From Gemmatimonadales bacterium (GTDB lineage: Bacteria > Gemmatimonadota > Gemmatimonadetes > Gemmatimonadales > GWC2-71-9): a stretch of DNA of 64,000 bases. The notes under the pieces were generated by a model. It had not been told where the DNA came from, made no database searches, and worked only from the letters and a program-made list of their open reading frames with translations. Made by a program: the position numbers and the translations under genes. The stretch spans positions 1,312,001 to 1,376,000 of the forward strand of contig JBBCJC010000002.1 of assembly GCA_037189525.1 (NCBI GenBank), written 5' to 3'. Shown here piece by piece: positions 22,855 through 40,734 of this stretch (the stretch's first letter is position 1; each line of letters opens with the position of its first letter).

Positions 22855-22940
22855 CCCGCTGATTAACAGTCAGCTGCCTTAGGCGGTGTGGATCCTTCTG
22901 CCAGTCTGCGTGGGGGTGGAGTCGGAGCCGGCCGAAAACG

Positions 22941-22984
22941 ACGAAACCCCACCGAGCATAACGTTCGGTGGGGTTTCGTTTTTT
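22941..22984. terminator. Bidirectional intrinsic terminator (original tRNA-Pro downstream terminator)
   Basis: acgaaaccccaccgagc/gttcggtggggtttcgt hairpin with T-tracts on both strands. Confidence 0.8.
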
Positions 22985-23032
22985 GATCAGTCGGGGCGCC
23001 GGGATTTGAATCCGGGACCTCTTGCTCCCGAA
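22984..23032. repeat. att direct repeat (displaced 3' half of tRNA-Pro)
   Basis: tgatcagtcggggcgccgggatttgaa(t/c)ccgggacctcttgctcccgaa, 48/49 identical to 40647-40695. Confidence 0.95.
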
Positions 23033-23395: not shown

Positions 23396-24064
23396 ATGGT
23401 AGTTGAATCCGCGGTGATACCTGGCCAGTACCCGGCCGAGCACGTTCGCCGGGTCGAGGTATGGGCTTCTGCATCGATTGATGGCGAAACACACGAGCGA
23501 ATGTCGCCCATGTTGGACGACGACGGCGAGGTATTTGCTCCAATCATGATCAATGTATTGGGCGGTACAGTCGACGGAGCCGCTACGGTACGGTCGCTGT
23601 CTGACGAGCACGGACGAACGGTTCACAGGGCGCACATACGGCTGTGGTTTGAACCGTCTGAGCCTCTCGACCTTGGTGACTCCTTCCTTTCGAAGCAGGC
23701 CGAGCGGTGGAACAATGTGACGAGCGAGCTGGATTCGGCCTTCGCTGACGCATCGTGGTCGGTCTCGGCGATCTTTGGCTTGGAAACCGCGGCAGAGCCA
23801 ACGGTTGTTGAGCTTCCGATCGCTCTCGACGCGCGAACAACAAAGAGCTTCTCGGAAATTAGGGGGCTGCGGCTTGTCCAGCTTACCAGCGATCGATCGT
23901 CTGAGCTGTACTCGGTAGTAGTCGACCAGCAACCGCGAGGACTGTCTCTTCAGGTCGCGTCGACCATGCGGTCGAACGTCAGCTCGGGGATCCTAGCCAA
24001 GGCCATGCGTGAGGGTTGGAGAATCGCGCGCTTTGCGGTGCCTAGCTTGCCGGAGGCGGAATGA
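23396..24064 (+). CDS. Hypothetical protein (first gene of HEPN operon)
   Basis: 222-aa ORF with ATGA overlap to the next gene. Confidence 0.65.
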   Translation: MVVESAVIPGQYPAEHVRRVEVWASASIDGETHERMSPMLDDDGEVFAPIMINVLGGTVDGAATVRSLSDEHGRTVHRAHIRLWFEPSEPLDLGDSFLSKQAERWNNVTSELDSAFADASWSVSAIFGLETAAEPTVVELPIALDARTTKSFSEIRGLRLVQLTSDRSSELYSVVVDQQPRGLSLQVASTMRSNVSSGILAKAMREGWRIARFAVPSLPEAE

Positions 24065-24654
24065 CTCACGTTATCGATAGTCGCGGCGTTTGGCACAGAC
24101 TCGACGAAATCGAGTTCCAACGGCCAGGGCGCCATGACTCGGTCGAACTCGTTCAGCAGAGTCGGCGATACCTGGAACGTCAGGCCCAAGCAGACATTCG
24201 GTCCGCGACTCAGGATTCTATGTCGTCCCTCTTTGTTGCTCTCATTCAGGGAGCGGCGAAGAAGGGGGCGTCCGCGGTTCGGGCCGACCTGCTCGCTGAG
24301 GAGCTCAAGGACGCGAAGGCAACCATTGATCGGTTACTGGCCTTCGTTCCAGGACGGATGCCAACGCCAGACGTCGAGCGCCTCCGGACCATTTCCAGCG
24401 AGCTCATGCAAGCGGCCAAAGACGCCTTCGGACCTTTGGGTTGTAAGCAGTACAACGTGGTTGCGCTGCCCGAGGCGGATGACGATTGCGAGGCGGCCGT
24501 CCGGATCGTTCTGGACGTTCAGCTGACGCCAGAAGCGGTCGCGCAGTTCGGGGAGCACGCCTTCGCCGTTCACCGACGCTTTGTTGAGCTTACGACACCG
24601 ACCGAACGTCGTGCGATTCACCTTTCCGTGGGCTCGATTTCCGACCCGCTATGA
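24061..24654 (+). CDS. Hypothetical protein, putative HEPN partner/antitoxin
   Basis: GGAGG RBS, ATGA overlaps on both sides. Confidence 0.65.
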   Translation: MTHVIDSRGVWHRLDEIEFQRPGRHDSVELVQQSRRYLERQAQADIRSATQDSMSSLFVALIQGAAKKGASAVRADLLAEELKDAKATIDRLLAFVPGRMPTPDVERLRTISSELMQAAKDAFGPLGCKQYNVVALPEADDDCEAAVRIVLDVQLTPEAVAQFGEHAFAVHRRFVELTTPTERRAIHLSVGSISDPL

Positions 24655-25061
24655 ACCCCGGTGAGAACCTCCCTCTCGCCAAGCTGCTTGCGAAGCCGTT
24701 GTCAGGCTGTTTGGACGAGGCGGCTTGGCGAGGAGCCGTAGGTCGTGCTTACTACGCCGCTTTTTGCGCCTCCAGAGATGCACTTGCCGCTGCGTCGATA
24801 GAGGTTCCGAGGACTAGAGATGCCCACGGGGATGTAGCGCAAAAGCTAGGGGAGTCGAGCGACTCGGTCGTTGCGGCTTGTGGCTCGATGCTTAATGACA
24901 TTCGACGCGACCGCCGAGCGGCGGACTACGACGTAGGCCGTCAGCTGCCGAAGCGTCATCACGAGTGGAGGACGATAGCTGCACTTTCCATAGGTAAGGC
25001 GGAACAGGTCGTCGAAGGACTGGCGAAGATTTCATCGGCCGAACTTAAGCGCAGCTTCTAG
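24651..25061 (+). CDS. HEPN domain protein (UPF0332-like)
   Basis: AVGRAYYAAF, conserved H (DAHGDV), RRDRRAADYD. Confidence 0.85.
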   Translation: MNPGENLPLAKLLAKPLSGCLDEAAWRGAVGRAYYAAFCASRDALAAASIEVPRTRDAHGDVAQKLGESSDSVVAACGSMLNDIRRDRRAADYDVGRQLPKRHHEWRTIAALSIGKAEQVVEGLAKISSAELKRSF

Positions 25062-25105
25062 GGTTTGCCCCCCCCATTGACCTTCCCGCCCCATCGTGGG
25101 GGCAT

Positions 25106-25448
25106 CTACACCTTCCGTGAGCACATGCTGGCCGCCGTCCTCAGTGGCCGGGACCGCCTCCGCCGCCTATACCCCTGCTGGACGAACTCGATCTCCCGCC
25201 CGATCTCGGCATCGGTGGGCCACCCCAAGTCCTCGCTCTTGTTCGAGTTCATGTCGAATGCTCCGAGTAGGCTGAGGCGCCAGGTGCCGTCATAGCCCTT
25301 AGTGGCAGGTCCAGCCGACGAGTCATGGTCGACCTCGGCCGCGGACCATGTCCTCGAGCTGGGCGACCGTCAGGCGCATCCGCCGGGCAGCTTCCGCCAG
25401 GGTGTAGTAGTTCGCGTCGGTGGGGAATTGGAACCGCCAGTTCGGCAT
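25106..25448 (-). pseudogene. Frameshifted HTH_17/Xis-like gene
   Basis: MPNWRFQFPTDANYYTLAEAARRMRLTVAQLEDMVRG stops at 25323; another frame continues ATKGYDGTWRLS... Confidence 0.45.
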
Positions 25449-25632
25449 TGGGCCAAGATAGCAGGCCCGGCATTCCTAGTGTCGCGATTCCTGAGAGCGC
25501 ATGGATGGCCGACCTACGGTTGGGCCCAGTACGCCCCTGAGCGTCCGTAGCCCGCGGATCGGCCAGCGGGCGAGCCCCCTTGTTCTTAACACCGGCTCCG
25601 GCCTCACGCTTATCAGACGTGCGGCCTCAGTC

Positions 25633-25872
25633 TCAATCGGGCACTTGCCCCCGTTGCGCTCGATAAGCAGCGACAAAGTCGGCTGCCAATTGGCTGGGCA
25701 GCCTGGTGCCTAGCCGATGCGTGAACTCCCAGACAAATTGGGAACCATCTGGGTTTGGAATACCAACCGACATGACGGCGGCCGTGCTCACCGTCATCAG
25801 GTTGGGATCCGGCCCGCGTTCACTGAGCTCCCACTGAATCGCGGCAACGACCTTCGCGAATTCCTCACTCAT
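25633..25872 (-). CDS. Hypothetical protein
   Basis: 79 aa, ATGA-coupled to the upstream gene. Confidence 0.5.
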   Translation of the reverse strand: MSEEFAKVVAAIQWELSERGPDPNLMTVSTAAVMSVGIPNPDGSQFVWEFTHRLGTRLPSQLAADFVAAYRAQRGQVPD

Positions 25873-26957
25873 TGTGTCGAGTTCTCCGTGTCGGTGTGAT
25901 CAGGACCGGGTTCGTTGGCGAAGCTATCGCCGTCAACGTCCTGTGGTACTTCACCACTGGTCCGACGTTGCCTCGGTTTCGAGGTTAGTCGATGCACAGC
26001 GGCCTTGAGTTCTCCATCGTCGCGAATCGCGAGGTCCATCCGCTCAACGAGGTCGACCAGGACAAGGCGGAAGTCGGTCGCATTGGCCAAGAATTCCTCG
26101 TCTGTGCCGTCGTGAAGATCCGCGCTAATTGCTTGGTGAAGGAGCTGCAGAGGACTGTGCCCATTGATGCGCAGGATCTCGGGAATCGCCGATTTTATCG
26201 AAGCGATGGCGTTGGCGAACTGCGTCTGACCCTTAGCCTCTGTTAGTTCGGCAACGAGGTCGTCGTGACCCGGAAGTACGGATGCGACCTTGATCATCCT
26301 GTCGAAGATTCTGTCCTTTTGCCGTTCGACGACCCGGCGGTAGTAGGCGGCCGCGCCCAGTCCGAATCCCTCCTGCTCCGCTCGATACCCAAGCAGGAAC
26401 AGCTTTCGATCCTTCTGGAGGAGTCGCTCCACTCTGGCGGGAGGCTTCTGACCGTACTGCGGCCACTCACCGATTTTCCAGATGCGAAGGGAGAGGTCTT
26501 CCTTTGCGGCGTCATGTGGCCGCGCATGTACCTCGAGCCGATTGCCTGACTGCGATTTCCAGGCGTGGTACTTGGGTGGCGGGGTGCATCCAAGAGCAAA
26601 CGTCTTATGGCTTTTGTTGCAGTTCTGGCATCGGTACGACGCGATACCGAACCATGGGAAATCCAATAGGCATTCTCCTACCGTTTGCCCGAGGTGAGAG
26701 ATAGGGCCAAACCATCGGACTCCATCACACTCAGGACAGTGCAGCTGAATGCGGGGAAGGGTAACAACAACGAGGGCTGCTCCCGAGGTGGCGGGCGACA
26801 CCGACGGGGCCACGGTCCACCTCAGCAGCGAGATTGCCGTGCCGGGTGGCATCCTCCCCAAGAGAATGGCGATGTCCATGTCTGTCGCCGGAGTACTTTC
26901 CGAGGTCAACGAAGGGTCGGGCCCTTGGCCTTCATTCGTCATTGTTGCTCTCCGCAA
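25869..26957 (-). CDS. Zn-ribbon + DUF4145/HEPN-like protein
   Basis: CPEC and CQNC pairs, KIGEWP, GLGAAAYYRRVVE, LHQAISADLH. Confidence 0.65.
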   Translation of the reverse strand: MRRATMTNEGQGPDPSLTSESTPATDMDIAILLGRMPPGTAISLLRWTVAPSVSPATSGAALVVVTLPRIQLHCPECDGVRWFGPISHLGQTVGECLLDFPWFGIASYRCQNCNKSHKTFALGCTPPPKYHAWKSQSGNRLEVHARPHDAAKEDLSLRIWKIGEWPQYGQKPPARVERLLQKDRKLFLLGYRAEQEGFGLGAAAYYRRVVERQKDRIFDRMIKVASVLPGHDDLVAELTEAKGQTQFANAIASIKSAIPEILRINGHSPLQLLHQAISADLHDGTDEEFLANATDFRLVLVDLVERMDLAIRDDGELKAAVHRLTSKPRQRRTSGEVPQDVDGDSFANEPGPDHTDTENSTQ

Positions 26958-27030
26958 AAATGAGCAGTGTTGCGGTGTGCTGGGATGAACGGGCAGACTC
27001 AGCGCCGCCGATTGCGCGAATTTCGTCGAA

Positions 27031-27963
27031 CTAATCTCCGAGCTGCGCCTCGGTCGGGAGTGTCGCGCGAATGATTACGGTTAGCTCATCGCCAGCCTTG
27101 TCGAGGTTCGCAGGTTCCCAAATCACGGTCAGCTGGTGGCTGGTGTCGAAGTGGATATCGTTAAAAACGTCGCGACGGCATGTGTAGATGACTGGAAGCC
27201 CAACGCCTTCAGCGAAGCCTGCCTCCCAATAGGCGCCGCGATTTCCATGGGATAGATCAGCAATAAGGAACCGGCTCCGCCGGATCTCCACTCGTAGCCG
27301 GTCGTCGATCAGCCCGGCTTCGGGTTCGTCGTCGAGGCGGCGGAGATCAAAGCCGGCGCGCAAGACGGCAGGTTTGAAGGTGCTGTGGACAACGTTGTCC
27401 AGTTCCTCGTCTCCGAAGGGCATTGCCATGAAGGCGCGCTTACTAGATCTGAACGTTGAGTTCCGTAGTTGGCGGACGCTGTCCCAGCCCTTGAGCGTCA
27501 ATCCGACATCTCCCCCACTTCGTGGATACACCTTTCCATGGAGGAGCCCGCTATTGACTAACTCTCCAACGAGGTAACCGACACTCTCCGTTGTTGCACA
27601 CCCTACCAGGGCCTGGTGGGGAGGTGCATGAACAGTGATCCGATCTCCAACTGCCTCCGTGTGGTCGCTTACGAGGAAAAGGATGTTGGCTGCTTGCTCG
27701 TCAGGCGATGGAAGTGAGACGTTCTGGACAAGGCTCTCCCACAGGTGGGTCGTCAGCTTGGGTACTGTCCTGTTTTTAAGCCCGCAGAGGCGGCGGATCC
27801 CGTAGCTAAGGGCTGGGCTTCCCTTGGCGGTGCCCTTCATGAAGAGTGCAACCAGGGATCCTGTCATCTCGTAAGTACCGCACCTTGGGCACTCATAGCG
27901 CGTGACATGGCCGTTTGCCTCCGTCCGGCACTCAAGCGAACATACATGGCAGGACTCGTTCAC
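27031..27963 (-). CDS. Zn-ribbon + wHTH + nucleoside 2-deoxyribosyltransferase/TIR-like domain protein
   Basis: CHVC/CPRC, LTLKGW, AFMAMPF, IRRSRFLIADLSHGNRGAYWEAGFA, PVIYTC, HFD. Confidence 0.8.
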   Translation of the reverse strand: MNESCHVCSLECRTEANGHVTRYECPRCGTYEMTGSLVALFMKGTAKGSPALSYGIRRLCGLKNRTVPKLTTHLWESLVQNVSLPSPDEQAANILFLVSDHTEAVGDRITVHAPPHQALVGCATTESVGYLVGELVNSGLLHGKVYPRSGGDVGLTLKGWDSVRQLRNSTFRSSKRAFMAMPFGDEELDNVVHSTFKPAVLRAGFDLRRLDDEPEAGLIDDRLRVEIRRSRFLIADLSHGNRGAYWEAGFAEGVGLPVIYTCRRDVFNDIHFDTSHQLTVIWEPANLDKAGDELTVIIRATLPTEAQLGD

Positions 27964-28087
27964 CGGTTTTAGCTCCTTGTTTGAGGCCCGCTCTGTTGAC
28001 TAATGAGGTCAATCTGTTCGCTATGAAGAGCTCGACCTTAACGCCCCCGGTGAGGAGGAGAGTGGAATCGCTCTACGGCTTCAGCTC

Positions 28088-28852
28088 TCAGCTTCTCTTG
28101 TCGCGCGCACCATCGATTCTGATCCAGTCATGAAACCGCCGTCCCAGATCGTTGATACGGACCATCTTGTTGGTCGATTTGGGATCTTGCGTTGAGGCAT
28201 CGAAGATCGTGATCAGGCCAAGGGCTTGGAGACGCAGCAGCCGAGCTCCGTAGAGTTCGTTTGGCGGGTACTTGAGTCGATCGAGGCTTGTCTCGGATCG
28301 ATAGCCCCAGAACATGTCTAGGCTGAGGGATCTCGGGAGGTCGCTTACGTTGGCTAAGGCCTCGATGTGCTCGTACTCGAGTTGGTCGAGAATTATGGCC
28401 ATCGTTCGGCCTTCATCCCGGTCGGCGGGTGCTTCGTGTCGAAGGCCATTTGCAAGGAGGGCGCCGAACGCCTCACGCTTCTTCTCGGCGCGGGCTCGCA
28501 AAGCCATGGGAAGCACCGTCAGAACGAGTTCACCCCAATCCGCTACATCCGGACGAGCCTCGGGCTCGATCGCCATCCGGTCGATGGCGTCGACGAGCCA
28601 CCAGAGGATGTGCTCTAGTCGCTCTCGGTAGCGCTGTTGACCGAACTCGCCTAACCATGGAGCAACCGCGTCGACGAGCAGCGTTAACCCAGTACTCGTC
28701 GGGGAAACCGCAGCAATGCTCGCGAGAACGCTGGCAATTCGTCCATCGCTCGTCCCTTCGAGCTCGACGAGTAGCTCGCGGATGCGTTCAGTCGGGGTTT
28801 CCGGGGGCAACCTGGCCGGGAACGGGCCATCGGGCGTACCGGGACTGCTCAC
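28088..28852 (-). CDS. Hypothetical protein, Abi-alpha/DUF4393-like
   Basis: ILDQLEYEHIEAL, LLRLQALGLI, INDLGRRFHDWI pattern; GTGA-coupled to the repressor. Confidence 0.55.
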   Translation of the reverse strand: MSSPGTPDGPFPARLPPETPTERIRELLVELEGTSDGRIASVLASIAAVSPTSTGLTLLVDAVAPWLGEFGQQRYRERLEHILWWLVDAIDRMAIEPEARPDVADWGELVLTVLPMALRARAEKKREAFGALLANGLRHEAPADRDEGRTMAIILDQLEYEHIEALANVSDLPRSLSLDMFWGYRSETSLDRLKYPPNELYGARLLRLQALGLITIFDASTQDPKSTNKMVRINDLGRRFHDWIRIDGARDKRS

Positions 28853-29073
28853 CCCTTCTTCCCCTTCTTCGGTTCCCGCACGATCAGGTCGCCCGGCTCG
28901 ACGCCGAGGGCCGCGGCGAGTCGTTCGATTAGGTCGAGCTCGATTCGCTTTGCCCGGTTGTTCTCGAGGTCGCTAATCGTTGCTTGGCGGGTGCTCGCCT
29001 CGTCGGCTAGGCGGACCTGCGACCAGCCTTTGGCTTCACGTAGTTCCCGGAGGCGGAGGCGAATTGGTGACAT
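28849..29073 (-). CDS. XRE/Cro-CI family HTH repressor
   Basis: LRELREAKGWSQVRLADEASTRQATISDLENN...LAAALGVEPGDL. Confidence 0.92.
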   Translation of the reverse strand: MSPIRLRLRELREAKGWSQVRLADEASTRQATISDLENNRAKRIELDLIERLAAALGVEPGDLIVREPKKGKKG

Positions 29074-31301: not shown

Positions 31302-31487
31302 ATGGTGGAATTGCGATTTATCCCGGCGCCGGAAGCGGCAGTAGCGGCGAGCATCTCCCGTGAACGGATCATCCGCCTGGTTCAGCGGGGCGAAATCAAT
31401 GGGCGGCTCGTCAGTGGCAGATGGCAGGTCGCCGAGGGCGAGGTCGAGCGGTTGCGTCAGCGCGCTGCCCAGGCTGCCGACACATGA
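31302..31487 (+). CDS. HTH_17 excisionase/AlpA-like protein
   Basis: PEAAVAASISRERIIRLVQRGEINGRLVSGRWQV. Confidence 0.8.
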   Translation: MVELRFIPAPEAAVAASISRERIIRLVQRGEINGRLVSGRWQVAEGEVERLRQRAAQAADT

Positions 31488-32092
31488 AATCCCGCGCCTC
31501 AGTTGCCGAATCGACCGTGGTACATACAACTGCCGCGCCGCCTAGGCGGGTCGATTTCGTCCGGGTTTTCGATGCGGCGCGTGCGATTGGTGTTCCATTC
31601 GATGGAGGTCCGGGTGAGGACTTGACCATACGTCGAAACTGGGATGTGATCGACCTTGCCGGGATGGCGGTTGTGCGACGCGCCGTTCTGGTCGAGCGCG
31701 GCCTCGAGCCCGAAACACGCCTCATTCTCTCAATCGATGAAAGTTGGTTGTCGCCGGTTCCGGATGACTTGGTTGCGCGCCAAACACCCGGTCCAGTCGG
31801 TCGCGACGTCACCTTCGGGGGCGGCGCAAGCGTTCCTCGGGGGACGATCATCGTCGACCGTGACGGATTTTTTGAGCCTCTGGCAGTCGCAGATGACCTC
31901 GCGTTTGTTCGCGGCGTCCTCCTCCGAGAGCTGCCGTCACTGGAATCATTGCGGCCGGCGACTGTCATCGTTCGGGGGGGCGTAAACCGTCATGCGCTCC
32001 GTTGGCCCGCCGAGATCGAGCCTGATGCCGTCGTCGAGGCGCTACGCCTTGCGTCAATCACTGTCCACTCCGCTACCGAGGACCAAAAGTGA
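31484..32092 (+). CDS. Head decoration protein (lambda gpD-like) with N-terminal extension
   Basis: C-terminal VTFGGGASVPRGTII...VRGVLLREL...ATVIVRGGVNRHALRWP...VEALRLASITV resembles the gpD/HDPD family. Confidence 0.6.
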   Translation: MKSRASVAESTVVHTTAAPPRRVDFVRVFDAARAIGVPFDGGPGEDLTIRRNWDVIDLAGMAVVRRAVLVERGLEPETRLILSIDESWLSPVPDDLVARQTPGPVGRDVTFGGGASVPRGTIIVDRDGFFEPLAVADDLAFVRGVLLRELPSLESLRPATVIVRGGVNRHALRWPAEIEPDAVVEALRLASITVHSATEDQK

Positions 32093-32658
32093 AAAACCAC
32101 GCTGAGCCGATCAAGAAACTGATCGACAAAGAGAAGCTCCATATCACCAAGCTCCGAGCGGAGCAAGCAGAGCGCCGAGCGCAGTGGGGCCAGTTCGTCG
32201 ATTCCGGACGGCCGTCGTCAGAGGCCGGCTCCCTGAAGACGCAAATGGATGTTGTCGACGAGCGACTTATCAAGGCGATGGCCCGGCTCTCAGAGCTCGA
32301 AGCGCAGCTCGAACAGGCGGAAGCCGAGGATCTTCACGAACGGCGGCTGATCGAAATCAAGGGCGCGGGTGCGCTCATTCAAGCCGTGACGGCGCGGCGA
32401 GCGGAGGTCGGCCGACTGGCGGGACAGCTGGCGGCTGCGCTGGGCGCCGAGGATGCGGCACATCAGCAGTTGCTAGACCTAGCGGATCGGGTCGGTACCT
32501 GGGATGCGGAGCGGGCGGCCAGCGGGCACGCGTCGGACACCTTCTACCTGGTGTTCAGGGACGTTGTGCCTGACCGCGCCCTGCGCCGCGGAGAATTCGA
32601 TCCGTCCGAATACCGGCTTGAGACGATCGATGGTGATCGCCTCTGGCCGACGCGATGA
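32089..32658 (+). CDS. Coiled-coil hypothetical protein
   Basis: Long heptad-rich helices; coupled on both sides. Confidence 0.65.
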   Translation: MKNHAEPIKKLIDKEKLHITKLRAEQAERRAQWGQFVDSGRPSSEAGSLKTQMDVVDERLIKAMARLSELEAQLEQAEAEDLHERRLIEIKGAGALIQAVTARRAEVGRLAGQLAAALGAEDAAHQQLLDLADRVGTWDAERAASGHASDTFYLVFRDVVPDRALRRGEFDPSEYRLETIDGDRLWPTR

Positions 32659-33107
32659 ACATCGCGGCGTGGCTTGACGCCCATTCCCGGCCGTGGACCG
32701 TCCGGTTCCCACGGCCGGCGAAGGTGACCATCCGTCGCGGTCGGGTCCCGCAGCCGTATCTGGAATACGCAGCCCGGGATTTGTCCGCGGTCGAAGTGGC
32801 CGGCTTTCTCGAGCAGTACCAAGCGATTCCATCAGCGGACGAGGCACGCCGCATCAGGCAGCTTCGCGCCTTCCTGCGGCGCCTTTTCCCGGGGCTGTTC
32901 TGGTGGACGCGGCCGGATCCGGTGGAGCTCATCTTGGCGCTACCGAAGCCGGGCCAGGATGCCGTACTCAACGATTTTTTCGCGTACCGGGCGGGCCAAT
33001 CCCGTCCGGCGATATCGACAGCGCCGACACCGGCGAGCCCCTCGCGCCCATTCCCCCCGCCTATGGCGACGGTCCCGACAGCGGTGAGGTCCGGCTCGGA
33101 TGGTTGA
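32655..33107 (+). CDS. Putative tail assembly chaperone (gpG-like)
   Basis: Lies directly upstream of the TMP; in-frame T TTT TTC slippery heptamer at 32975-32981. Confidence 0.6.
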   Translation: MNIAAWLDAHSRPWTVRFPRPAKVTIRRGRVPQPYLEYAARDLSAVEVAGFLEQYQAIPSADEARRIRQLRAFLRRLFPGLFWWTRPDPVELILALPKPGQDAVLNDFFAYRAGQSRPAISTAPTPASPSRPFPPPMATVPTAVRSGSDG

Positions 33108-33334
33108 TCGCGGCCGCCGCGCGCTGGTGGGGACCGGATTGGTTCCGTCACCCTCTCTATCGGACGCCCGATCGGATCGTTCCGTGGCGGATCTTCGTGG
33201 CCTCGCTGCCGCTGATGCGGGCACTCGAGGCCCGCGAACAACTGGCGCGGGTGACCGCCTCGGCATTTATGCACCAAGTAGATCCGACGGCCGCCGTGCG
33301 CCGGCTCGAGCGGATCGCTTACGGGCAGGAGTGA
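32981..33334 (+). CDS. -1 frameshift extension (gpT-like) of the tail assembly chaperone
   Basis: Open -1 frame after the slippery site, ending 8 bp before the TMP start. Confidence 0.6.
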   Translation, partial: RVPGGPIPSGDIDSADTGEPLAPIPPAYGDGPDSGEVRLGWLIAAAARWWGPDWFRHPLYRTPDRIVPWRIFVASLPLMRALEAREQLARVTASAFMHQVDPTAAVRRLERIAYGQE

Positions 33335-33342
33335 GGTAGCCC

Positions 33343-36234
33343 ATGGCCCGCGACTGGTCGTTAGTCATCAGGGTTCTAGACCATTTCACGGCCCCGATCC
33401 GTAGCGCCAACAATCAGCTGAAGGGACTGGCCGATGGGATCAACGGCTGGTTCAAAGGGATCGGGGCGACCCTCGCGGCATTTGGCGTGGGCGCCTTCCT
33501 CAAGGGCGCGATCGACGAGGCCGCCCAGTATGAGAAGGAAGTGGGACGGCTCGACGTTGCCCTCCGAAATGCGGGGACTTCGTTCGCTGAGGTCGGTGAC
33601 GAGGCGATGGCGGCCGTGGATGAGATCGAGCGCACCACCAAGTTCTCCGGTGGCGAGGCCGTTGAGGCGCTCACCAAGCTGACAACGATGACGGGCGACT
33701 ACAACGGGAGCCTGAAGGAACTGGGCACCGTCGCCGACATCGCCGCCTACAAGGAAGTCTCGATGGTCCAGGCCGCCGAGCTCCTCGGCAAAGCCAAGCA
33801 AGGCAACGCGAAGGCCTTCAAGGAATTCGGCATCGAAGTCGGATCGAACACGGAGAAGCTCGAGCAGCTCCGTCAGAAAACTCAGGGCTTCGGTGAGCAG
33901 AGCGGGAGCGGCATCAACGGCTGGATTGCCCGGACGGTGAACAGCTGGGACAACTTTCGCGAGAAGGTCGGCCTCGCACTCACGCAATCGGATGCCCTCG
34001 CGCCGGTCGTCGATGGCTTGGTAGGCGGACTCGCGAACCTGGCCGAATGGATCGAAACCAACTCTCACAAGATCGAAGGCTTTGTTGGTGGCCTCGTCTC
34101 GGTTGCCACGATCATCAAGGATGTAGTCGTTGGCGCGTTCGGCCTTCTGGGCGGTGTTCTCGATTGGATCGCTATCGGCCTTCTGAAGCTCGACACGGCC
34201 TTCCAGAGTTCACAGCAGAAAGCGCGCATTGTCTTCGGCCAGTTCCTGCAGAGCATCGGCGAGTTCATGGCTGCCGGCAAAGATGTGCTGCGGAAGTTCG
34301 GGATCGATGTAGGTGAAGGCGTTGCGGAGAACATGGCAAAGGCCGGCGCGCGGATGGCGAGTCAGGCACGGGCGGACCTCGCGGTCATCAACAATGAGTA
34401 CGCTCTGAAGCGGAAACAGCTGGAGGGCGTCGTCGCGACCAGCGAGCGCGAGGTCAGCAAGATCGTCAAGGACGGCAGCACGGGCCGAACCAAACTCACC
34501 GCGGAGGAACTCAAGGAGGTCGAGCAGAAGCGCAAGGATTCAGCGAAGGCTCTGGAGGAGGTCGAAAAAATTGCGCATAAGAGCAGTGGCGAACTGCTCT
34601 CTGCCGCGCAGCGCAACTACCAGGAAGCCGTCCGGACGTTCCAGGACAAGATGCAGCAGATGTCGGCCGAGGATCGCGCCAAGGCCGAACGTCTACTGAA
34701 GACCCATCTCGAAAACCTGCTGCTGAAGTGGGCCGGATTCGATGCGTCGATGGAGCAGCGGAAGCCCAAGCTCCAGCAGACGTCTGACCTGTTCCAGGTC
34801 CAAGGACGAACAGCCGATGAGCTTGGCGCTGCACTGCAACGCCTCAGCGGGAAGGCCCTCGAAGCCGCGACGGCGGATGAGCGGAACAACGCGAAGCGCA
34901 TCGTTGTTCGCCAGCACATCAAGGACGTCGCCGACGCCTACGTCGACGCCGTCACTCAGATGGGCATCTTCGTCGAGGCGCTCGGCGGATCGAGTTCGGA
35001 GATGGACGCCTTCATCACTGGCCTCGAGAACATCGGCGACGCGATCGGCAAGATCGCGATAGGCGACATGGTCGGCGGGTTGCAGTCGGGCATCATGGGC
35101 GTGGCCAGCATGGTCAAGCTCGCCTTCGGATCCGAGTCCGCCTCGGCCCGCGCCGTCCGCCTCGCCAACGAGAAGACCCAGGCCAAGCTCGAGCAGCACC
35201 GTCAGCGGATCGGTGACCTGATCGAGATCTCCGCCCCCGGTCGACAGATGAGTGTGGTGGAGCAGGCCCTCGGCTCGATCGACCTCGGACGGTTCTCCAA
35301 GGCAGACAACGCGCGGGACGTCAACGATCAGGTTCTCCGCCAGCAACTCGGGCGATTCTTGGTCGAGCGCGGCATGACGATGACCGACCTGAACGCCGTC
35401 GCCGATGCCTATGGCGTCTCGATCAAGGACGACAAGGGACGACTCAACGCACAGCTGCTGCAGGGATTGCTACACCTGCTCAAGGCATCTGAGGTCGGGT
35501 ATAGCGACACGTTCAGCGGTCAGATGGAGCGGATCCAGCAAGGCAAATCGTTGGGCATCATCGATGAGCTGGACGAACTGATGACGCTGATTCGGGATCC
35601 GCGACTTGGCATCCCGGCCCTCGCAGCGGCCCTCGAGGGTGTTGATGAAACGGCCGAAGGACGCGCGCGCGGCCGCGCCGCCATTCAGGAGCTGTTCACT
35701 CAGCTCGGCACACCAGGCGCCATCTCGAAGGCGGGCCTCGGCGGCGCCAACGAGTCGCAGTTCCGCGCGTTGCTCGCCCAATTCATGGAACTCTTCGCGG
35801 CCGACGAGACCGAGGAGGAGCCGGGCCCGGCGCTGCCCGAACCCGTACTGCCTCCACCCCCACCCGTCGAGGTATCACGGAGCGACACGACCGACGCCGG
35901 CGTCGACTTTGGGCTTGGGGATGTGGGTTCCGACTGGGCGAGTACCGCGCGGAGTGTCGCGCTGGTGCCGGAGTTTCTCGCCGCTGAACTTGTGCCGATC
36001 CGCGATCACCTGGCCGCCATTCGCCTGGGGACGACGGAGCTCGTCCACTTGGCCAACCGCTCGGCGGCCTTCGCCGGCGGTCCGGTGCCGGTCAACGTGT
36101 CGGTGGCCATCGGGGAAGTGCACCAGTACGCGACCGAAGATCCCGAGGCCTTCACCAATCGCATTCTCGCGGACATCCGGCTTCGCTGGGCTGAGGAACT
36201 GCGATTCTATCGCCAAGCGAAGGGAACGATATGA
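33343..36234 (+). CDS. Phage tail tape measure protein
   Basis: 963 aa, helical and Ala/Gly-rich. TMP-like N-terminus (LVIRVLDHFTAPI; ADIAAYKEVSMVQAAELLGKA..G...FKEFGI) and C-terminus (VNVSVAI...EDPEAFTNRI). Confidence 0.85.
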   Translation: MARDWSLVIRVLDHFTAPIRSANNQLKGLADGINGWFKGIGATLAAFGVGAFLKGAIDEAAQYEKEVGRLDVALRNAGTSFAEVGDEAMAAVDEIERTTKFSGGEAVEALTKLTTMTGDYNGSLKELGTVADIAAYKEVSMVQAAELLGKAKQGNAKAFKEFGIEVGSNTEKLEQLRQKTQGFGEQSGSGINGWIARTVNSWDNFREKVGLALTQSDALAPVVDGLVGGLANLAEWIETNSHKIEGFVGGLVSVATIIKDVVVGAFGLLGGVLDWIAIGLLKLDTAFQSSQQKARIVFGQFLQSIGEFMAAGKDVLRKFGIDVGEGVAENMAKAGARMASQARADLAVINNEYALKRKQLEGVVATSEREVSKIVKDGSTGRTKLTAEELKEVEQKRKDSAKALEEVEKIAHKSSGELLSAAQRNYQEAVRTFQDKMQQMSAEDRAKAERLLKTHLENLLLKWAGFDASMEQRKPKLQQTSDLFQVQGRTADELGAALQRLSGKALEAATADERNNAKRIVVRQHIKDVADAYVDAVTQMGIFVEALGGSSSEMDAFITGLENIGDAIGKIAIGDMVGGLQSGIMGVASMVKLAFGSESASARAVRLANEKTQAKLEQHRQRIGDLIEISAPGRQMSVVEQALGSIDLGRFSKADNARDVNDQVLRQQLGRFLVERGMTMTDLNAVADAYGVSIKDDKGRLNAQLLQGLLHLLKASEVGYSDTFSGQMERIQQGKSLGIIDELDELMTLIRDPRLGIPALAAALEGVDETAEGRARGRAAIQELFTQLGTPGAISKAGLGGANESQFRALLAQFMELFAADETEEEPGPALPEPVLPPPPPVEVSRSDTTDAGVDFGLGDVGSDWASTARSVALVPEFLAAELVPIRDHLAAIRLGTTELVHLANRSAAFAGGPVPVNVSVAIGEVHQYATEDPEAFTNRILADIRLRWAEELRFYRQAKGTI

Positions 36235-36614
36235 AGGTTGGGGAAGACGCGGATATCGCGCAGGCGGCCGCCGCGGCCGAGCGGAAACGGATCCTGTCGA
36301 TTCAGCAGCTGGCAATGCCAGGTGCGGACGACATCATCGCCGCGGCGATCGCCGATCCGACCGTGACGGCTGGGGCGACGGCACTCAAAATCCTGCAGAC
36401 GCAGAACGCCGGCCGATTGCGAAAGCTGCGCGCGTTGCAGCGCGACGTTGAGGTCGACCCGACCCCCCGGTCGCTGCCCTCGAGTGAGTTCGATGGTCGT
36501 ACGGCGGCGGGGCGCTCCTTGCTGGGGACCGTGAAGCGCGTCCAGGCGGAGCAGGAAGCCATAGCGGCGGCTCAGGCGGATCTGGGTCGCATAGGGCAGC
36601 TGGGAGGGGGTTGA
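36231..36614 (+). CDS. Stand-alone Nu3-like capsid scaffolding protein
   Basis: AAAAERKRILSIQQLAMPGADDIIAAAIADPTVTAGATALKIL resembles the C-terminal scaffold region of S49 head-maturation proteases. Confidence 0.6.
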   Translation: MKVGEDADIAQAAAAAERKRILSIQQLAMPGADDIIAAAIADPTVTAGATALKILQTQNAGRLRKLRALQRDVEVDPTPRSLPSSEFDGRTAAGRSLLGTVKRVQAEQEAIAAAQADLGRIGQLGGG

Positions 36615-37256: not shown

Positions 37257-38234
37257 GTGATGCTTGCCCTTCACCAGGATCCGCGGCCCTCGAGGTTTCA
37301 GCCGATGACGGTCGAGGAGCTTGCCCGACTGCCGAAACCGACATGGGATGTTGAGGGGCTTTTCGTGACCGGTGGCCTTTCGGTTCTGTTCAGCGAACCA
37401 GGCGGGGGGAAGACATTGCTCGCGCTCGACCTGGCCCTCTCGATGGCTGCAGGTCACGATGAGTGGTTCGGACGACGCCTCCGCAGTGGTTCAGTAGTAT
37501 ACGCGGCTGGCGAGGGCCTGCGCAGTCTCTCTCCGCGCATCGAGGCGTGGCGTTCGCGCGCTCCAGGTGCCTTTCACCTACGGTTTCTGGCCGTTCCAGA
37601 TGTCCCGAATCTGGGTAGCCCCGCCGAGTGCACTGAATTCGTAACCGAGCTGGCAAACAGGGGCGAAACATCGCCAGCGTTGTTGGTGATTGATACCTTG
37701 GCCAGGGCCACCGCCGGCCGTGACGAGAACGACGCGCTTGAAATGGGGGTTTCGGTGGAGGGGCTCGAATACCTCGCGCGCGAGCTCGGGTGCGGTATCC
37801 TGGTTCTCCATCACTCGGGATGGTCAAAGGGCCGGGAACGGGGCTCGAGTGCCCTGCGCGCGGCCTGCGACACGGTCGCCGGCCTTGAGCGGGATGGCGA
37901 CGATTTCGTTCTGCGAGTTGTCAAGCAGCGCGACGGAGAAGTCGGGGTTGCCATGCGGCTTCGATTATCAAAAGCCGCTCCGTCGGTTGTCTTCGATGTC
38001 GTCGAGGGTGATGTGACGGATAGTGGTCCTGATCTTACACCGCGGCAGCGCGACGTGGTTCGATCGTTGATCGAACTCAATCGAGCAGCAACGTTCTCAG
38101 AACTCGTCGATCATACCGGGGCTTCGAAGAGCACCATATCCGGTGCGGTGAACCTACTGTCTCGCTGCGGCTTGGTACGTAAATCTAATGATCGGTATGA
38201 GTTAACCGAGGCGGGATTGAATGCAGTTCGCTGA
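37257..38234 (+). CDS. AAA_25 / RepA-like SF4 helicase with C-terminal wHTH
   Basis: Walker A SEPGGGKT, YAAGEG, Walker B LLVIDTLAR, LVLHHSG, RGSSAL, KQRDG. Confidence 0.88.
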   Translation: MMLALHQDPRPSRFQPMTVEELARLPKPTWDVEGLFVTGGLSVLFSEPGGGKTLLALDLALSMAAGHDEWFGRRLRSGSVVYAAGEGLRSLSPRIEAWRSRAPGAFHLRFLAVPDVPNLGSPAECTEFVTELANRGETSPALLVIDTLARATAGRDENDALEMGVSVEGLEYLARELGCGILVLHHSGWSKGRERGSSALRAACDTVAGLERDGDDFVLRVVKQRDGEVGVAMRLRLSKAAPSVVFDVVEGDVTDSGPDLTPRQRDVVRSLIELNRAATFSELVDHTGASKSTISGAVNLLSRCGLVRKSNDRYELTEAGLNAVR

Positions 38235-38446
38235 GTTCGGTCCGGTTCGATTCGGGTTCGATCGAACCTTCTCTGGACGGAGGTTGGTTCGGTTCGATGG
38301 TTCGGGGTCTAAAGACCCCTCGAACCAATCGAACCTGGGCCTAGCGACCAACCTCCGCGGGGGGATATGCACGGCAGGCGCGTTGCTTATGTCACTTCTT
38401 CTGGTTCGGTTCGGTTCGATATTGGTTCGATCGAACTCTGCGAACC
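38226..38446. repeat. Iteron-like (G)GTTCG/CGAAC(C) array, putative replication origin
   Basis: About 16 GTTCG/CGAAC copies in both orientations; central inverted repeat at ~38291-38335. Confidence 0.7.
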
Positions 38447-38498: not shown

Positions 38499-38590
38499 GG
38501 GTCCTCCCAGAGGATCGGCCGCGCTAGCGGGTGACGCAGCCCCCCGGCACTGTCTGTATACCGGATTTTCTAGGGGACTTTCCGTTTCCA
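38499..38590 (+). other. Lambda-like cos packaging site (cosQ-cosN-cosB start)
   Basis: GGGTCCT at 38499-38505, 23-nt spacer, GGGTGACGCAGC at 38529-38540, then ATTTTC and TTTCCGTT; lies just upstream of the Nu1-like gene. Confidence 0.7.
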
Positions 38591-38615
38591 CTCAATCGCA
38601 GGGTTTTGAGGCTTT

Positions 38616-38873
38616 GTGACGGCAAAACAGCAGGAAATTCGTGGACCGTTGCTGGCGCGATTGCTCGGTGTTACGACGCGCACCCTGCATAACCTCCGTA
38701 CCCGGGGAATGCCGCATCGACGGGACGGCCGCGAGGTGTGGTACCCGGTGCCGACTTGCCTGGCCTGGTATTTCCGCTCCGGAGATGGCGCGGCTGCGGC
38801 GCCGGCGCCCACCGTTCGACCGGAAATTCGCCCCATTCCGAAGGCCACCTCGTTTTCGGTGGGAGCCGAATAA
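38616..38873 (+). CDS. Truncated terminase-small-subunit (Nu1) DNA-binding domain, Rpp-like
   Basis: LARLLGVTTRTLHNLRTRGMP...EVWYPVPTCLAWY parallels the lambda Nu1 wHTH; only 85 aa. Confidence 0.7.
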   Translation: MTAKQQEIRGPLLARLLGVTTRTLHNLRTRGMPHRRDGREVWYPVPTCLAWYFRSGDGAAAAPAPTVRPEIRPIPKATSFSVGAE

Positions 38874-39266
38874 GTGGTTCAGCTCGAGCAGCTGCGCGCG
38901 TTGGCAAATGCGCTGCCGGCGGGGACGGCGTTGCCGGTTCCGCGGGAGTGGGTGCTCGAGCTGCTTGACCGGATTGACGGCCAGGTACCGGCGATGGTGT
39001 CGACGTCGGCCGATCTCACGGTTTCGGACTTGGCGGGGCGGTTCAACCGATCGCCGTCGACGGTACGCTGGTGGATCGAATGCGGCCGCTTCGTCGGGGC
39101 CTATCGGCTGCGGGGCAGGGAATGGCGGGTTCCGCCGGCGGTGCTGCAGGCCTTCGAAGAGGCGGAGCGCTCGGCAGCACCGCGAGGTCCGGCAAATCCC
39201 GATCCGACACCGCGACGGTCACGGGGGAAGGTTGTAGACCTGGGCGACTGGCGGAAGGTAGGTTAA
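38874..39266 (+). CDS. Excisionase-like HTH_17 protein
   Basis: LTVSDLAGRFNRSPSTVRWWIECG...GAYRLRGREWRVP; adjacent to the integrase. Confidence 0.8.
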   Translation: MVQLEQLRALANALPAGTALPVPREWVLELLDRIDGQVPAMVSTSADLTVSDLAGRFNRSPSTVRWWIECGRFVGAYRLRGREWRVPPAVLQAFEEAERSAAPRGPANPDPTPRRSRGKVVDLGDWRKVG

Positions 39267-39270
39267 GGCG

Positions 39271-40734
39271 ATGATGACGCCTCGGAAGCGACAGTCGCGG
39301 GTCTACTGGCGAGTGCGAAGCGGCACCCGCCGCGCGTACGGGGATTTCCGCGACTATGCCGACGTCGGGGGAAAGCTCGAGCCGTTGATTCCGATTGGGG
39401 AACGGTTTGCAACGACGGATCCGGATCTCGCGCTGCGGCTGGCGCTGCGCCGTTTGGAAGAGCTCGAGGCAGCCCGGAAACGGCGAGCGATCACCGGGAA
39501 GGCCGATGTGATCACGCTGGCCGAGTATGCCCGCGACTATCTGATCGCCAAAAGGAAAACGGGGAATGTGACGACCGGCTGGCTGGCCGCGTGTCAGAAG
39601 TTCCTTGAGCGCGCTGTGGCCTTCCTGGGTGCTGATCGACCACTCGATGAGGTCCGGGTTTCGGATGTGCGCGCCTGGTCGGCCCATCTCCTGACGCATG
39701 TCGAGCTGCCGCGCACGGGGCCGAATGCCCCGAAGAACAAGGCGCCCAAGTCGCTGTCGCCGGACAGCGTTAGGCGGCACCTGTTCACCCTGTCGAACCT
39801 ATACCGGTTTGCGCAGGAGGCAGAGCACGTGCCTCCTGGTTTCAATCCGGTTGCCTCGTTCGCGGACAAGCCGCCCAAGCCGCAGCGGTCGGCGGCCTGG
39901 TTGGAAGCGCCCGATGTCGCGTTGCTGCTGGAGAGTGCCCGCACCGTACAAACCGTGGCCACGCCATTCGCGGAGGGCTTCGATGCCGGCTTTGTTCATC
40001 CTCTCCTCGCGACGCTTGCGCTGACGGGTGGCCGCCGTGGGGAAGTGCTGGGGCTAGAGCTCGATGATGTGAGCCTCGACCGCCGGACGATCACCTTCCG
40101 AGCCAATCGGTGGCGTGATCGTCTCAAAACGGGGGCGTCCTGGCGCACGGTGCCGCTGTGGCCGCAGCTCGAGGGGATTCTCCGCCCCTACCTGTTCGGC
40201 CCGCGCCTGCTGCGGGGTGGTTCGCTGCTGTTCCCGTCGTTCGTCGCTGGCCGCGAGCAGCCGCTGCGGGAGATTCGGCCGATGCTCGACCGGGTGGCGA
40301 TGCGAGCTGGCTGGAAGGCCCGTGAGATCAACGCCCGGATGTTCCGTCACGCCTACTGCGCAGCTCGCCTCCAGACCCTGGACCACGGGGCGCCGGTCAG
40401 CGTGTACACTGTGAGCCGCGAGCTGGGCCACGGGTCAACGGATATGGTTGAGAAAGTGTATTCGCACTTGGGGACCGTGCGGCATCGGTCGGAGGAGGTT
40501 GAGTTCCGAATCGAGCAACACTTCGAGGTCCTGGGCCAGCGGCTCGAAGGCCTGCCGTTTGTTACCCGGAACGTTACCGGCGAACACTCGTTGACCGCAA
40601 AAGATGAAGCCCCGCCGAGCATAACGTTCGACGAGGCTTCACTTTATGATCAGTCGGGGCGCCGGGATTTGAACCCGGGACCTCTTGCTCCCGAAGCAAG
40701 CGCGCTACCAGGCTGCGCTACGCCCCGTCACTGA
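39271..40734 (+). CDS. Tyrosine recombinase/integrase
   Basis: TGGRRGEVLGL (R), LKT, RMFRH, ELGH, VYSH (Y); the ORF runs through the att site and antisense tRNA-Pro. Confidence 0.93.
   Translation: MMTPRKRQSRVYWRVRSGTRRAYGDFRDYADVGGKLEPLIPIGERFATTDPDLALRLALRRLEELEAARKRRAITGKADVITLAEYARDYLIAKRKTGNVTTGWLAACQKFLERAVAFLGADRPLDEVRVSDVRAWSAHLLTHVELPRTGPNAPKNKAPKSLSPDSVRRHLFTLSNLYRFAQEAEHVPPGFNPVASFADKPPKPQRSAAWLEAPDVALLLESARTVQTVATPFAEGFDAGFVHPLLATLALTGGRRGEVLGLELDDVSLDRRTITFRANRWRDRLKTGASWRTVPLWPQLEGILRPYLFGPRLLRGGSLLFPSFVAGREQPLREIRPMLDRVAMRAGWKAREINARMFRHAYCAARLQTLDHGAPVSVYTVSRELGHGSTDMVEKVYSHLGTVRHRSEEVEFRIEQHFEVLGQRLEGLPFVTRNVTGEHSLTAKDEAPPSITFDEASLYDQSGRRDLNPGPLAPEASALPGCATPRH
40558..40578. 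repeat. Putative integrase arm-type site (within int)
   Basis: Identical to 23136-23156. Confidence 0.7.
40606..40640 (-). terminator. Element-supplied terminator for the tRNA operon
   Basis: Hairpin homologous to 22943-22977; pairs via G-U only on the minus-strand RNA; followed by AUCUUUU. Confidence 0.65.
40647..40695. repeat. att direct repeat overlapping intact tRNA-Pro
   Basis: 48/49 identical to 22984-23032. Confidence 0.95.
40654..40727 (-). tRNA. tRNA-Pro(CGG)
   Basis: CGGGGCG acceptor stem, CTTGC-TT-CGG-GA-GCAAG. Confidence 0.95.

Follow-up and report, generated by a model that had tools for sequence, protein, structure and literature searches.

A 17.7 kb island at a tRNA-Pro gene of a soil Gemmatimonadota bacterium is, at about even odds (a probability of roughly 0.5), a phage satellite that would be packaged at a cos-like site by the terminase of a lambda-like helper, with an 85-amino-acid TerS fragment serving only as an accessory binder. 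It is likely to be a satellite because it encodes an integrase, an excisionase and a helicase and carries a cos-like site, but contains no TerL, portal, capsid or tail tube gene. The evidence comes from the anatomy of the island, the match of its packaging site to a motif of GpA-type prophages in the same phylum, the fold and truncation of its short terS ORF, and the cos-terS cassettes of sister loci. The island lies within the window, by which we mean the whole 64,000 nt stretch of DNA that was analysed, and the window's numbering is used throughout.

Anatomy of the island

The island is bounded by a 101 nt direct repeat. The attL-like copy at 22932–23032, which reproduces the 3' end of tRNA-Pro and its flank, is 87% identical to the copy at 40595–40695 (spacing 17,663 nt), and the latter overlaps the 3' end of the tRNA-Pro(CGG) gene called at 40653–40727. 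The tyrosine integrase gene (39271–40734, forward strand; phrog_1, E 1.3e-38) runs into attR, and we note that its frame passes through attR and the full length of the tRNA-Pro gene, which is on the other strand. From attL onwards the island contains, in order, cargo genes, an XRE repressor gene, an HTH_17 gene, and decoration-like, coiled-coil, G/GT, tape-measure and scaffold-like genes; these are followed by an uncharacterised ORF, an AAA helicase gene, an iteron cluster, the cos-like site, the truncated terS, xis and int.

The repressor is a 74 aa XRE/Cro-type protein (28849–29073, reverse strand; Pfam HTH_3, E 5.5e-13) with a 62% identical homologue in the G126 sister island, and the HTH_17 protein (31302–31487, forward strand; Pfam HTH_17, E 7.7e-4) is an AlpA/Xis-like regulator at the head of a morphogenesis-like operon, whose G411 homologue precedes a coiled-coil gene. 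The helicase (rep; 37257–38234, forward strand) joins an AAA_25 domain (Pfam E 9.1e-35; phrog_906, E 6.8e-37) to a C-terminal winged helix-turn-helix (wHTH). It is followed at 38235–38446 by an iteron-like cluster of GGTTCG/CGAACC words, the densest in the window (13 matches in 250 nt, where the window averages 0.28) and likely the origin of replication. The excisionase-like HTH_17 protein (38874–39266, forward strand; Pfam HTH_17, E 6.4e-7) begins immediately after the terS stop codon, with a gap of 0 nt. The cargo region (23396–28852) has a lower GC content and encodes a HEPN-like protein (phrog_5176), a 362 aa protein (phrog_25239) and a TIR-like protein of 310 aa, all possible defence genes; PADLOC gave one weak TIR match among the 10 cargo ORFs.

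The first product of the morphogenesis-like operon after the regulator is a 202 aa head-decoration (gpD)-like protein (31484–32092, forward strand), which matches phrog_49 (E 3.6e-8, residues 92–200) and Pfam HDPD (E 1.7e-5, below the cut-off). The match is confined to its C-terminal half, and its codon score is weak, being negative like those of the ORF at 36611 and the AAA ORF. Next to it lies the gene for a 189 aa protein (32089–32658, forward strand) modelled as a coiled-coil hairpin (helices at residues 5–39 and 44–144); homologue searches with this protein and with the decoration-like protein returned only the queries themselves. An identity with Psu (Atlas lead 0.90) was rejected for the 189 aa protein after two fold searches gave generic coiled coils only. 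We note that coiled-coil proteins of 180–250 aa recur in islands of this kind (L107:10769, L108:8573, L117:8782, L104:10896, L122:7182, L110:7900, L103:4067 and L143:3401), with alignment identities of 14–22%; a Psu/Sid-like capsid role for them is a lead only.

The tail assembly chaperone gene G (32655–33107, forward strand) is predicted to be extended by a −1 frameshift at a slippery run (32975–32981) to give GT (32655–33334), and is followed by an uninterrupted tape-measure-like gene of 963 codons (33343–36234, forward strand; phrog_5062, E 0.0017). G, GT and the tape-measure protein (TMP) are collinear with the genes that follow the tail tube gene of the G369 prophage, where the counterparts of G and GT come before the tape measure. 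G (E 2e-8) and GT (E 8e-7) are 45% and 31% identical to their G369 counterparts, a 17 nt block around the slippery run is identical in G369, and the TMP matches over aa 2–401 (E 1e-51) and 358–818 (E 2e-19) a counterpart whose N-terminal ORF matches phrog_28 TMP. The 127 aa scaffold-like protein (36231–36614, forward strand) weakly resembles the C-terminal region of head maturation proteases (phrog_53 positions 344–457, E 0.029) and is 40% identical over aa 17–100 (E 0.006) to the end of the G369 gene that precedes the decoration-like gene there. Five junctions in the operon have 4 nt stop/start overlaps, some of them joining genes that are not adjacent in the G369 prophage, and these overlaps favour an operon that was put together over one left behind by random deletion. 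No baseplate hub-like gene was recognised among the island ORFs in Pfam and PHROG scans, and none of the 8 matches in 366 family genomes is a second island with a TMP and no tube (one, in G044, is cut by a contig end). In a G571 prophage (L153:15558–18748, L154) terS-terL is preceded by the chaperone and tape-measure genes and followed by the tail tube gene.

Twelve structural and TerL queries from three prophages of the phylum gave no match in the host genome at E ≤ 1e-3, and against the island alone a single match, at 0.87, reached E ≤ 1. The host genome (98% complete) lacks PF05876, and no helper with a GpA-type terminase was found in it. Among public sequencing runs the island was present in one only, possibly the source. 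Contig C8 of G000 was considered as a helper and rejected, its phrog_57 match being an Xis-like HTH and no GpA-type TerL being present. This contig (L005, 15.6 kb) has terminal repeats, a lower GC content, an integrase and an AAA helicase and, by eye, a terminase-large-like ORF and injection-protein-like ORFs, with no recognised capsid gene; it could be a further satellite, or a contaminant from binning.

The cos-like site and the truncated terS gene

The original prediction read the sequence at 38499 as a lambda-like cos site, and most of the matches that it listed are present in both the window and the lambda record (J02459). The cosQ-like box (38499–38508, forward strand) contains the lambda 7-mer GGGTCCT and also fits the consensus of the phylum; 23 nt separate the 7-mer from the GGG at 38529, as in lambda, GATC occupies spacer position 8 in both, and ATTTTC is at +37 in both. 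The R3-like TTTCCGTT is likewise present downstream, but at +51 rather than at +55, that is, 4 nt off. The R3-I1-R2-R1 arrangement of the lambda cosB is not found; there is one R3-like box, a single R3 being the layout of the N15 and PICI cos sites (PMC9026076), and the start codon of the next ORF is at +88, only 88 nt from the second box. Local alignment of the whole site to lambda cos did not bear out the similarity (score 24 against 20.6 ± 3.1 for 1000 shuffles, not significant; other 300-mers of the window reach scores up to 29), so lambda alone is no proof of the site. GGGTCCT occurs 475 times in the host genome, and a single occurrence, that in the island, has TTTCCGTT 60–80 nt downstream.

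A TerS profile run over 401 genomes of the phylum gave 39 matches in 30 genomes. These comprise 21 rows for 20 loci with a GpA-type terL downstream of terS (the terL of G127 matches phrog_15), one row for the island and 13 rows for 11 loci without TerL; four rows were set aside, G398 and G286 at contig ends and two of G057, weak Xis-like HTHs that precede another type of terminase. A GGGTCC(T/C)-type box is found 70–285 nt upstream of terS in 18 of the 20 TerL-linked loci (the chance of this pattern is roughly 0.13 per locus); one of the two exceptions is cut by a contig end and the other, L109, showed no box. A two-box model trained only on these 18 prophage sites, with the window excluded, ranks 38499 first among 9,304,130 positions of the host genome (25.1; runner-up 20.8), within the range of leave-one-out scores of the training sites (10.9–28.3). 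Its second, cosN-like box alone (38525–38544, forward strand; 23 nt past the 7-mer) scores 10.3, the highest value among the 475 GGGTCCT sites, where lambda scores −2.0. The two-box model was used in place of a fixed-register matrix from nine prophage sites, which gave the window −17 owing to its longer spacer.

The spacers of the 18 prophage sites are 17–22 nt long, the 23 nt of the island lying one base beyond, and none of them contains GATC. Because of this, and because lambda scores so low on the second box, we regard the motif as cos-like and native to the phylum, with an exact lambda register that is partly coincidental. From the position of the motif and its conserved cosQ (PMC4669245), we infer that it is probably the cut site in these phages. 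The 12 nt cohesive end predicted at 38529–38540 is a guess, since GATC, the 23 nt spacer and ATTTTC are not conserved in the sites of the phylum. The proposed 12-mer shares 6 of 12 bases with the lambda cohesive end, and in the surrounding 22 nt only 4 of 22 positions are self-complementary (10 of 22 in lambda); in place of a lambda-like symmetric cosN, it is the box of the phylum that is matched. A dyad-symmetry scan across the 18 sites gave no clear centre (0.25–0.39).

The R3-like box (38579–38589, forward strand) has its 9-mer at +52, and the same 9-mer is found at +51 to +54 in 5 of the 18 phylum prophage sites (G167, G111, G271, G223 and G010), the box being missing from the other 13. 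A recognition helix of the form T-x-R-x-x-x-(N/D)-L, resembling that of the island's 85 aa protein, is present in all five prophages with the box versus 3 of 13 without it (p 0.007, for a pattern chosen after sequence inspection and among related genomes). As the 9-mer is common to these five prophages and all five have that helix, box and helix look like a cognate phage pair and not an invention specific to the island.

The ORF that follows (38616–38873, forward strand) begins with GTG behind a good Shine-Dalgarno-like GAGG and encodes 85 aa, comprising a wHTH (aa 7–55) and a 30 aa disordered, Pro/Ala-rich tail. The prediction that it is a Nu1-type wHTH ending before the coiled-coil and TerL-binding part agrees with its match to the PHROG 57 terminase small subunit (E 2.1e-7), which covers profile positions 11–68 of 199. 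A Pfam scan at E ≤ 0.1 gave MerR only (0.025) and no Phage_Nu1. A profile built from the ORF and two homologues found only lambda TerS chains in the PDB (three sequences at E ≤ 10), with RppC unlisted; RppC against the family profile gave E 0.013. The predicted structure has a confident wHTH at residues 7–55 and no helix after residue 55, where pLDDT is about 55. In Foldseek the top five rows are TerS DNA-binding domains (DBDs; E 2e-3 to 3e-2, none below 1e-3), with the RdfS excisionase at ranks 9–10 and RppC, by its wHTH only, at rank 29. Homodimer complex predictions for the 85 aa protein scored 0.25 and 0.23 (mark 0.42).

No remnant of the TerS coiled coil or of TerL was found in any frame downstream or within the island. 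The closest longer relatives are proteins of 149–176 aa with the TerS coiled-coil half, and these form a supported clade with the ORF (98/97; 56 columns only) in a TerS tree where island and phage rows are interleaved, mostly with weak support. Two 84 aa homologues, 83% and 75% identical, have the same end point, and an assembly error therefore does not explain the truncation. Differences from the ORF number 4/53 in the wHTH vs 9/30 in the tail for one homologue and 3/53 vs 17/30 for the other (Fisher p 0.011 and 4e-7), which suggests selection on the 85 aa protein; recent descent or a DNA-level constraint would also fit. Viral contigs scanned with the ORF, the integrase, the decoration-like protein, the TerS alignment and two tape measures gave no match, and a metagenome scan gave one locus, which was spurious.

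Sister TerS loci and competing explanations

Besides the island, 11 loci have no GpA-type terL in the DNA examined (only 1.3 kb in the case of G333). Six of these carry a full-length TerS (G147, G138 in three frames, G025, G301, G114 and G332), and because they do, the truncation in the island appears to be a derived and rare state; a bare wHTH like that of the island is found in none of the 11. In the remaining five (G127, G114, G309, G333 and G344) the wHTH is joined to a different C-terminal segment, helical by eye, and four of the five are behind a cos-like site. Compared with the 85 aa ORF, these fusions (L105:9391–9912 in G127, L104:9671–10000 in G114, L106:17996–18355 in G309, L100 in G333 and L111:4555–4950 in G344) are the stronger candidates for true Rpp analogues. 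A cos-like site scoring above 20 is present in 8 of the 11 loci (G344 has one at 16.8, in one locus none was found and one is cut upstream), and an integrase adjoins in five of these TerL-less loci, four of them with a tRNA.

The closest sister island, in G147, has an integrase 85% identical over aa 1–78 and the order rep-cos-full TerS...xis-int, and G138 and G025 have cos-terS-xis-int at tRNA-Leu. The same gene set, or a copy of the middle of the island, was found nowhere else among 21–22 genomes of the genus. Among 29 further loci that encode an Xis relative, none has a TerS within 1.2 kb upstream (that of G147 is further upstream than this), and six of the 29 have scattered GGGTCC(T/C). We note that two small primase-bearing elements of G057 (L107:7853–14736 and L108:5913–14396) have their own phrog_2-type large terminase, and that no capsid gene was recognised among their scanned ORFs.

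We infer the functional steps of the preferred reading, a satellite packaged by a helper terminase, as follows. The cos-terS cassette would have been acquired from a phage with the type of TerS recognition helix that accompanies the TTCCGTTTC box, and the coiled coil and TerL-binding half of TerS would then have been lost. On helper infection the island would excise and replicate, and the GpA-type terminase of the helper would recognise its phage-type cos directly, by analogy with cos-carrying SaPIs. The leftover wHTH might bind the R3-like box or pair weakly with the helper TerS, and so tune packaging, or transcription of the terS'-xis-int unit, without switching specificity, as at most an accessory cos binder. 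Helper tails and heads would be adapted to the island by its G/GT-tape-measure, scaffold-like and decoration-like genes. The att repeats, tRNA target, Int, Xis, rep and iterons count in favour of a satellite, and the spacer, outside the range of the 18 phylum prophages, counts against it, spacing being known to matter in lambda cos (for cosN–cosB; PMC9026076). Also against the preferred reading, isolated lambda TerS DBD bound specific and non-specific DNA about equally (PMC9026076). We consider unlikely an active three-step hijacker of lambda-like phages in which the DBD-only protein is a proto-Rpp that redirects or poisons the terminase of the helper, the scaffold, decoration and coiled-coil proteins resize the head and the G/GT-tape-measure genes build chimeric tails; if true, it would be part of an undescribed family of cos-terS islands in the phylum running from a full TerS to a bare wHTH to a wHTH with a new helical C-terminus.

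The island could instead be a relic, in which the cos and the first 55 terS codons are left over, the phage-like genes are debris of one or more lambda-like prophages, and the ORF has no packaging role and is kept by recent descent or by translational coupling to xis; taken together we judge this rather unlikely. The full-length TerS of the six sister loci would agree with decay in the island, yet three proteins at 75–83% identity share one end point and a nearly invariant wHTH, and the good GAGG element still precedes the GTG. Likewise the atypical spacer and the negative codon scores of the decoration-like, 36611 and AAA ORFs are what a relic might have, whereas the att sites, Int, Xis, the 963-codon TMP gene and the slippery site are intact. 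The G571 prophage also has chaperone and tape-measure genes a few kb upstream of terS-terL, but the gene order of the island is unlike that of the phylum prophages and its new junctions are tightly overlapped. An ordinary Xis/MerR-like regulator beside chance lambda-like motifs is a very improbable reading and already largely refuted: although the alignment to lambda cos is not significant, GGGTCCT is frequent in the genome, the ORF abuts xis and RdfS appears among the fold matches, the independently trained model puts the site at rank 1 of 9.3 million positions, the pairing of GGGTCCT with the R3-like word at that distance is unique in the genome, and the closest longer relatives of the ORF carry the TerS coiled-coil half.

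The original prediction went further and placed an Rpp-like packaging hijack in a distant phylum. The arrangement that it described stands, a cos-like site and then a TerS DBD-only gene after the rep/ori of a PICI-like island, but the identity of the protein as an Rpp is not supported as stated. Rpps are 139–154 aa long (PMC9026076); in PMC6739421, RppA has 144 aa and RppC 153, residues 65–139 form the dimer helices α4–α6, and the substitution F121R in α6 of RppA abolished homodimers, impaired TerS binding and island transfer, and removed interference. The island protein has the N-terminal TerS-like wHTH of an Rpp, and its gene comes after the ori and immediately follows a cos whose cosQ/cosN are helper-like, but at 85 aa it has no α4–α6 domain. 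Because the DBD is present and the dimer domain is missing, we do not file it as an Rpp, and an Rpp in this distant phylum is not established.

It is quite unlikely, in our estimate, that the protein is a minimal Rpp whose wHTH pairs with the helper TerS through a DBD-DBD interface, grafts the R3 specificity of the island onto helpers whose cosB differs, blocks their packaging and recruits TerL by way of the helper subunit. E. coli PICIs have the same layout, cos-rpp after the ori with one R3-equivalent (PMC9026076), and the protein is a TerS-type wHTH without a TerL-binding half; PMC6739421 adds that lambda TerS DBDs dimerise alone and that Rpps are thought to be TerS-derived, but also that α6 dimerisation, for which the island protein has no helices, is needed for RppA function. 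Since 13 of the 18 phylum prophages lack the R3-like box, helpers with a different cosB exist and a weak Rpp-like role toward them is possible; against this, the box and helix are phage-type and not island-specific, where the cosB of PICIs has no match to the helper R3 (PMC9026076), and by the Foldseek ranks the protein is nearer to lambda TerS than to RppC.

Comparison with known satellites

The island resembles PICIs in having an integrase, att repeats at a fixed site (tRNA-Pro) and a size (17.7 kb) near the ~15 kb typical of them, and a replication module with an origin (AAA_25 helicase-wHTH and iterons; no primase domain was recognised). PICIs have no phage structural or lytic genes (PMC6092414), and the island contains chaperone, tape-measure and decoration-like genes; it would thus work like a cos-type PICI but departs from that definition. 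With the cos-rpp islands of E. coli (RppA/B/C; PDB 6HLK, 6HN7; PMC6739421, PMC9026076) it shares an int, a rep-ori and a cos with conserved cosQ, a single box at the R3 position, a TerS-derived wHTH gene without the TerL-binding end, and the absence of TerL. Unlike their Rpps of 139–154 aa with C-terminal dimer helices, its 85 aa protein has no such helices and is nearer to lambda TerS than to RppC in both sequence and fold; the cosB of Rpp islands is unlike that of the helper, whereas the R3-like box of the Gemmatimonadota island is common to 5 of 18 phylum prophages. It also differs from E. coli PICIs in carrying tail and head genes and in having xis-int after the cassette. The sister islands could serve as a natural series in which to examine the origin of Rpp-like proteins from TerS, which PMC6739421 leaves open.

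The DBD of lambda Nu1/TerS (PDB 1J9I, 7LW0) is alike in its ~55-residue wHTH (30–33% identity) and gives the top fold matches, and the cosQ 7-mer and R3 core are shared; in contrast to lambda cos, the second box of the island is of the phylum's type, there is one R box, the start codon follows within 88 nt, and the whole lies within an intact island. Across phyla, then, the cosQ word of lambda and a core like that of R3 appear to persist, the variable parts being the spacer and the second box, and this might provide a usable marker for the genome ends of uncultured GpA-type phages.

Satellites that have a TerS of their own or the cos of the helper, namely the SaPIs, pac and cos (PMC6092414), and the marine VEIMEs (PMC9618062), are alike in having an integrase, an excisionase, a primase/helicase and a terS homologue close to those of co-occurring phages, and TerS-bearing satellites are widespread in marine particles (PMC9618062). 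The island differs from both in that its TerS is a DNA-binding domain only, in its Gemmatimonadota host, and in being known from its genes alone. A literature search, mostly of openly available main texts, found no report of phage satellites in Gemmatimonadota and none of a truncated, dominant-negative TerS in satellites; the island would extend cos-type satellites to a phylum for which that search found no satellite report.

The closest parallel for the tail genes is the tail module of the Vibrio cholerae PLEs (TAC, TMP and BhuB; PMC12987554), which, like the island, has its own chaperone and tape measure and no tail tube. The island differs in its lambda-type G/GT frameshift pair, which probably belongs to a non-contractile tail, in its tyrosine integrase and cos-type site, and in having no recognised baseplate hub gene. 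PLEs are the only satellites reported to encode a TMP (PMC12987554), and an element of satellite type that has a chaperone and a tape measure of its own would join them.
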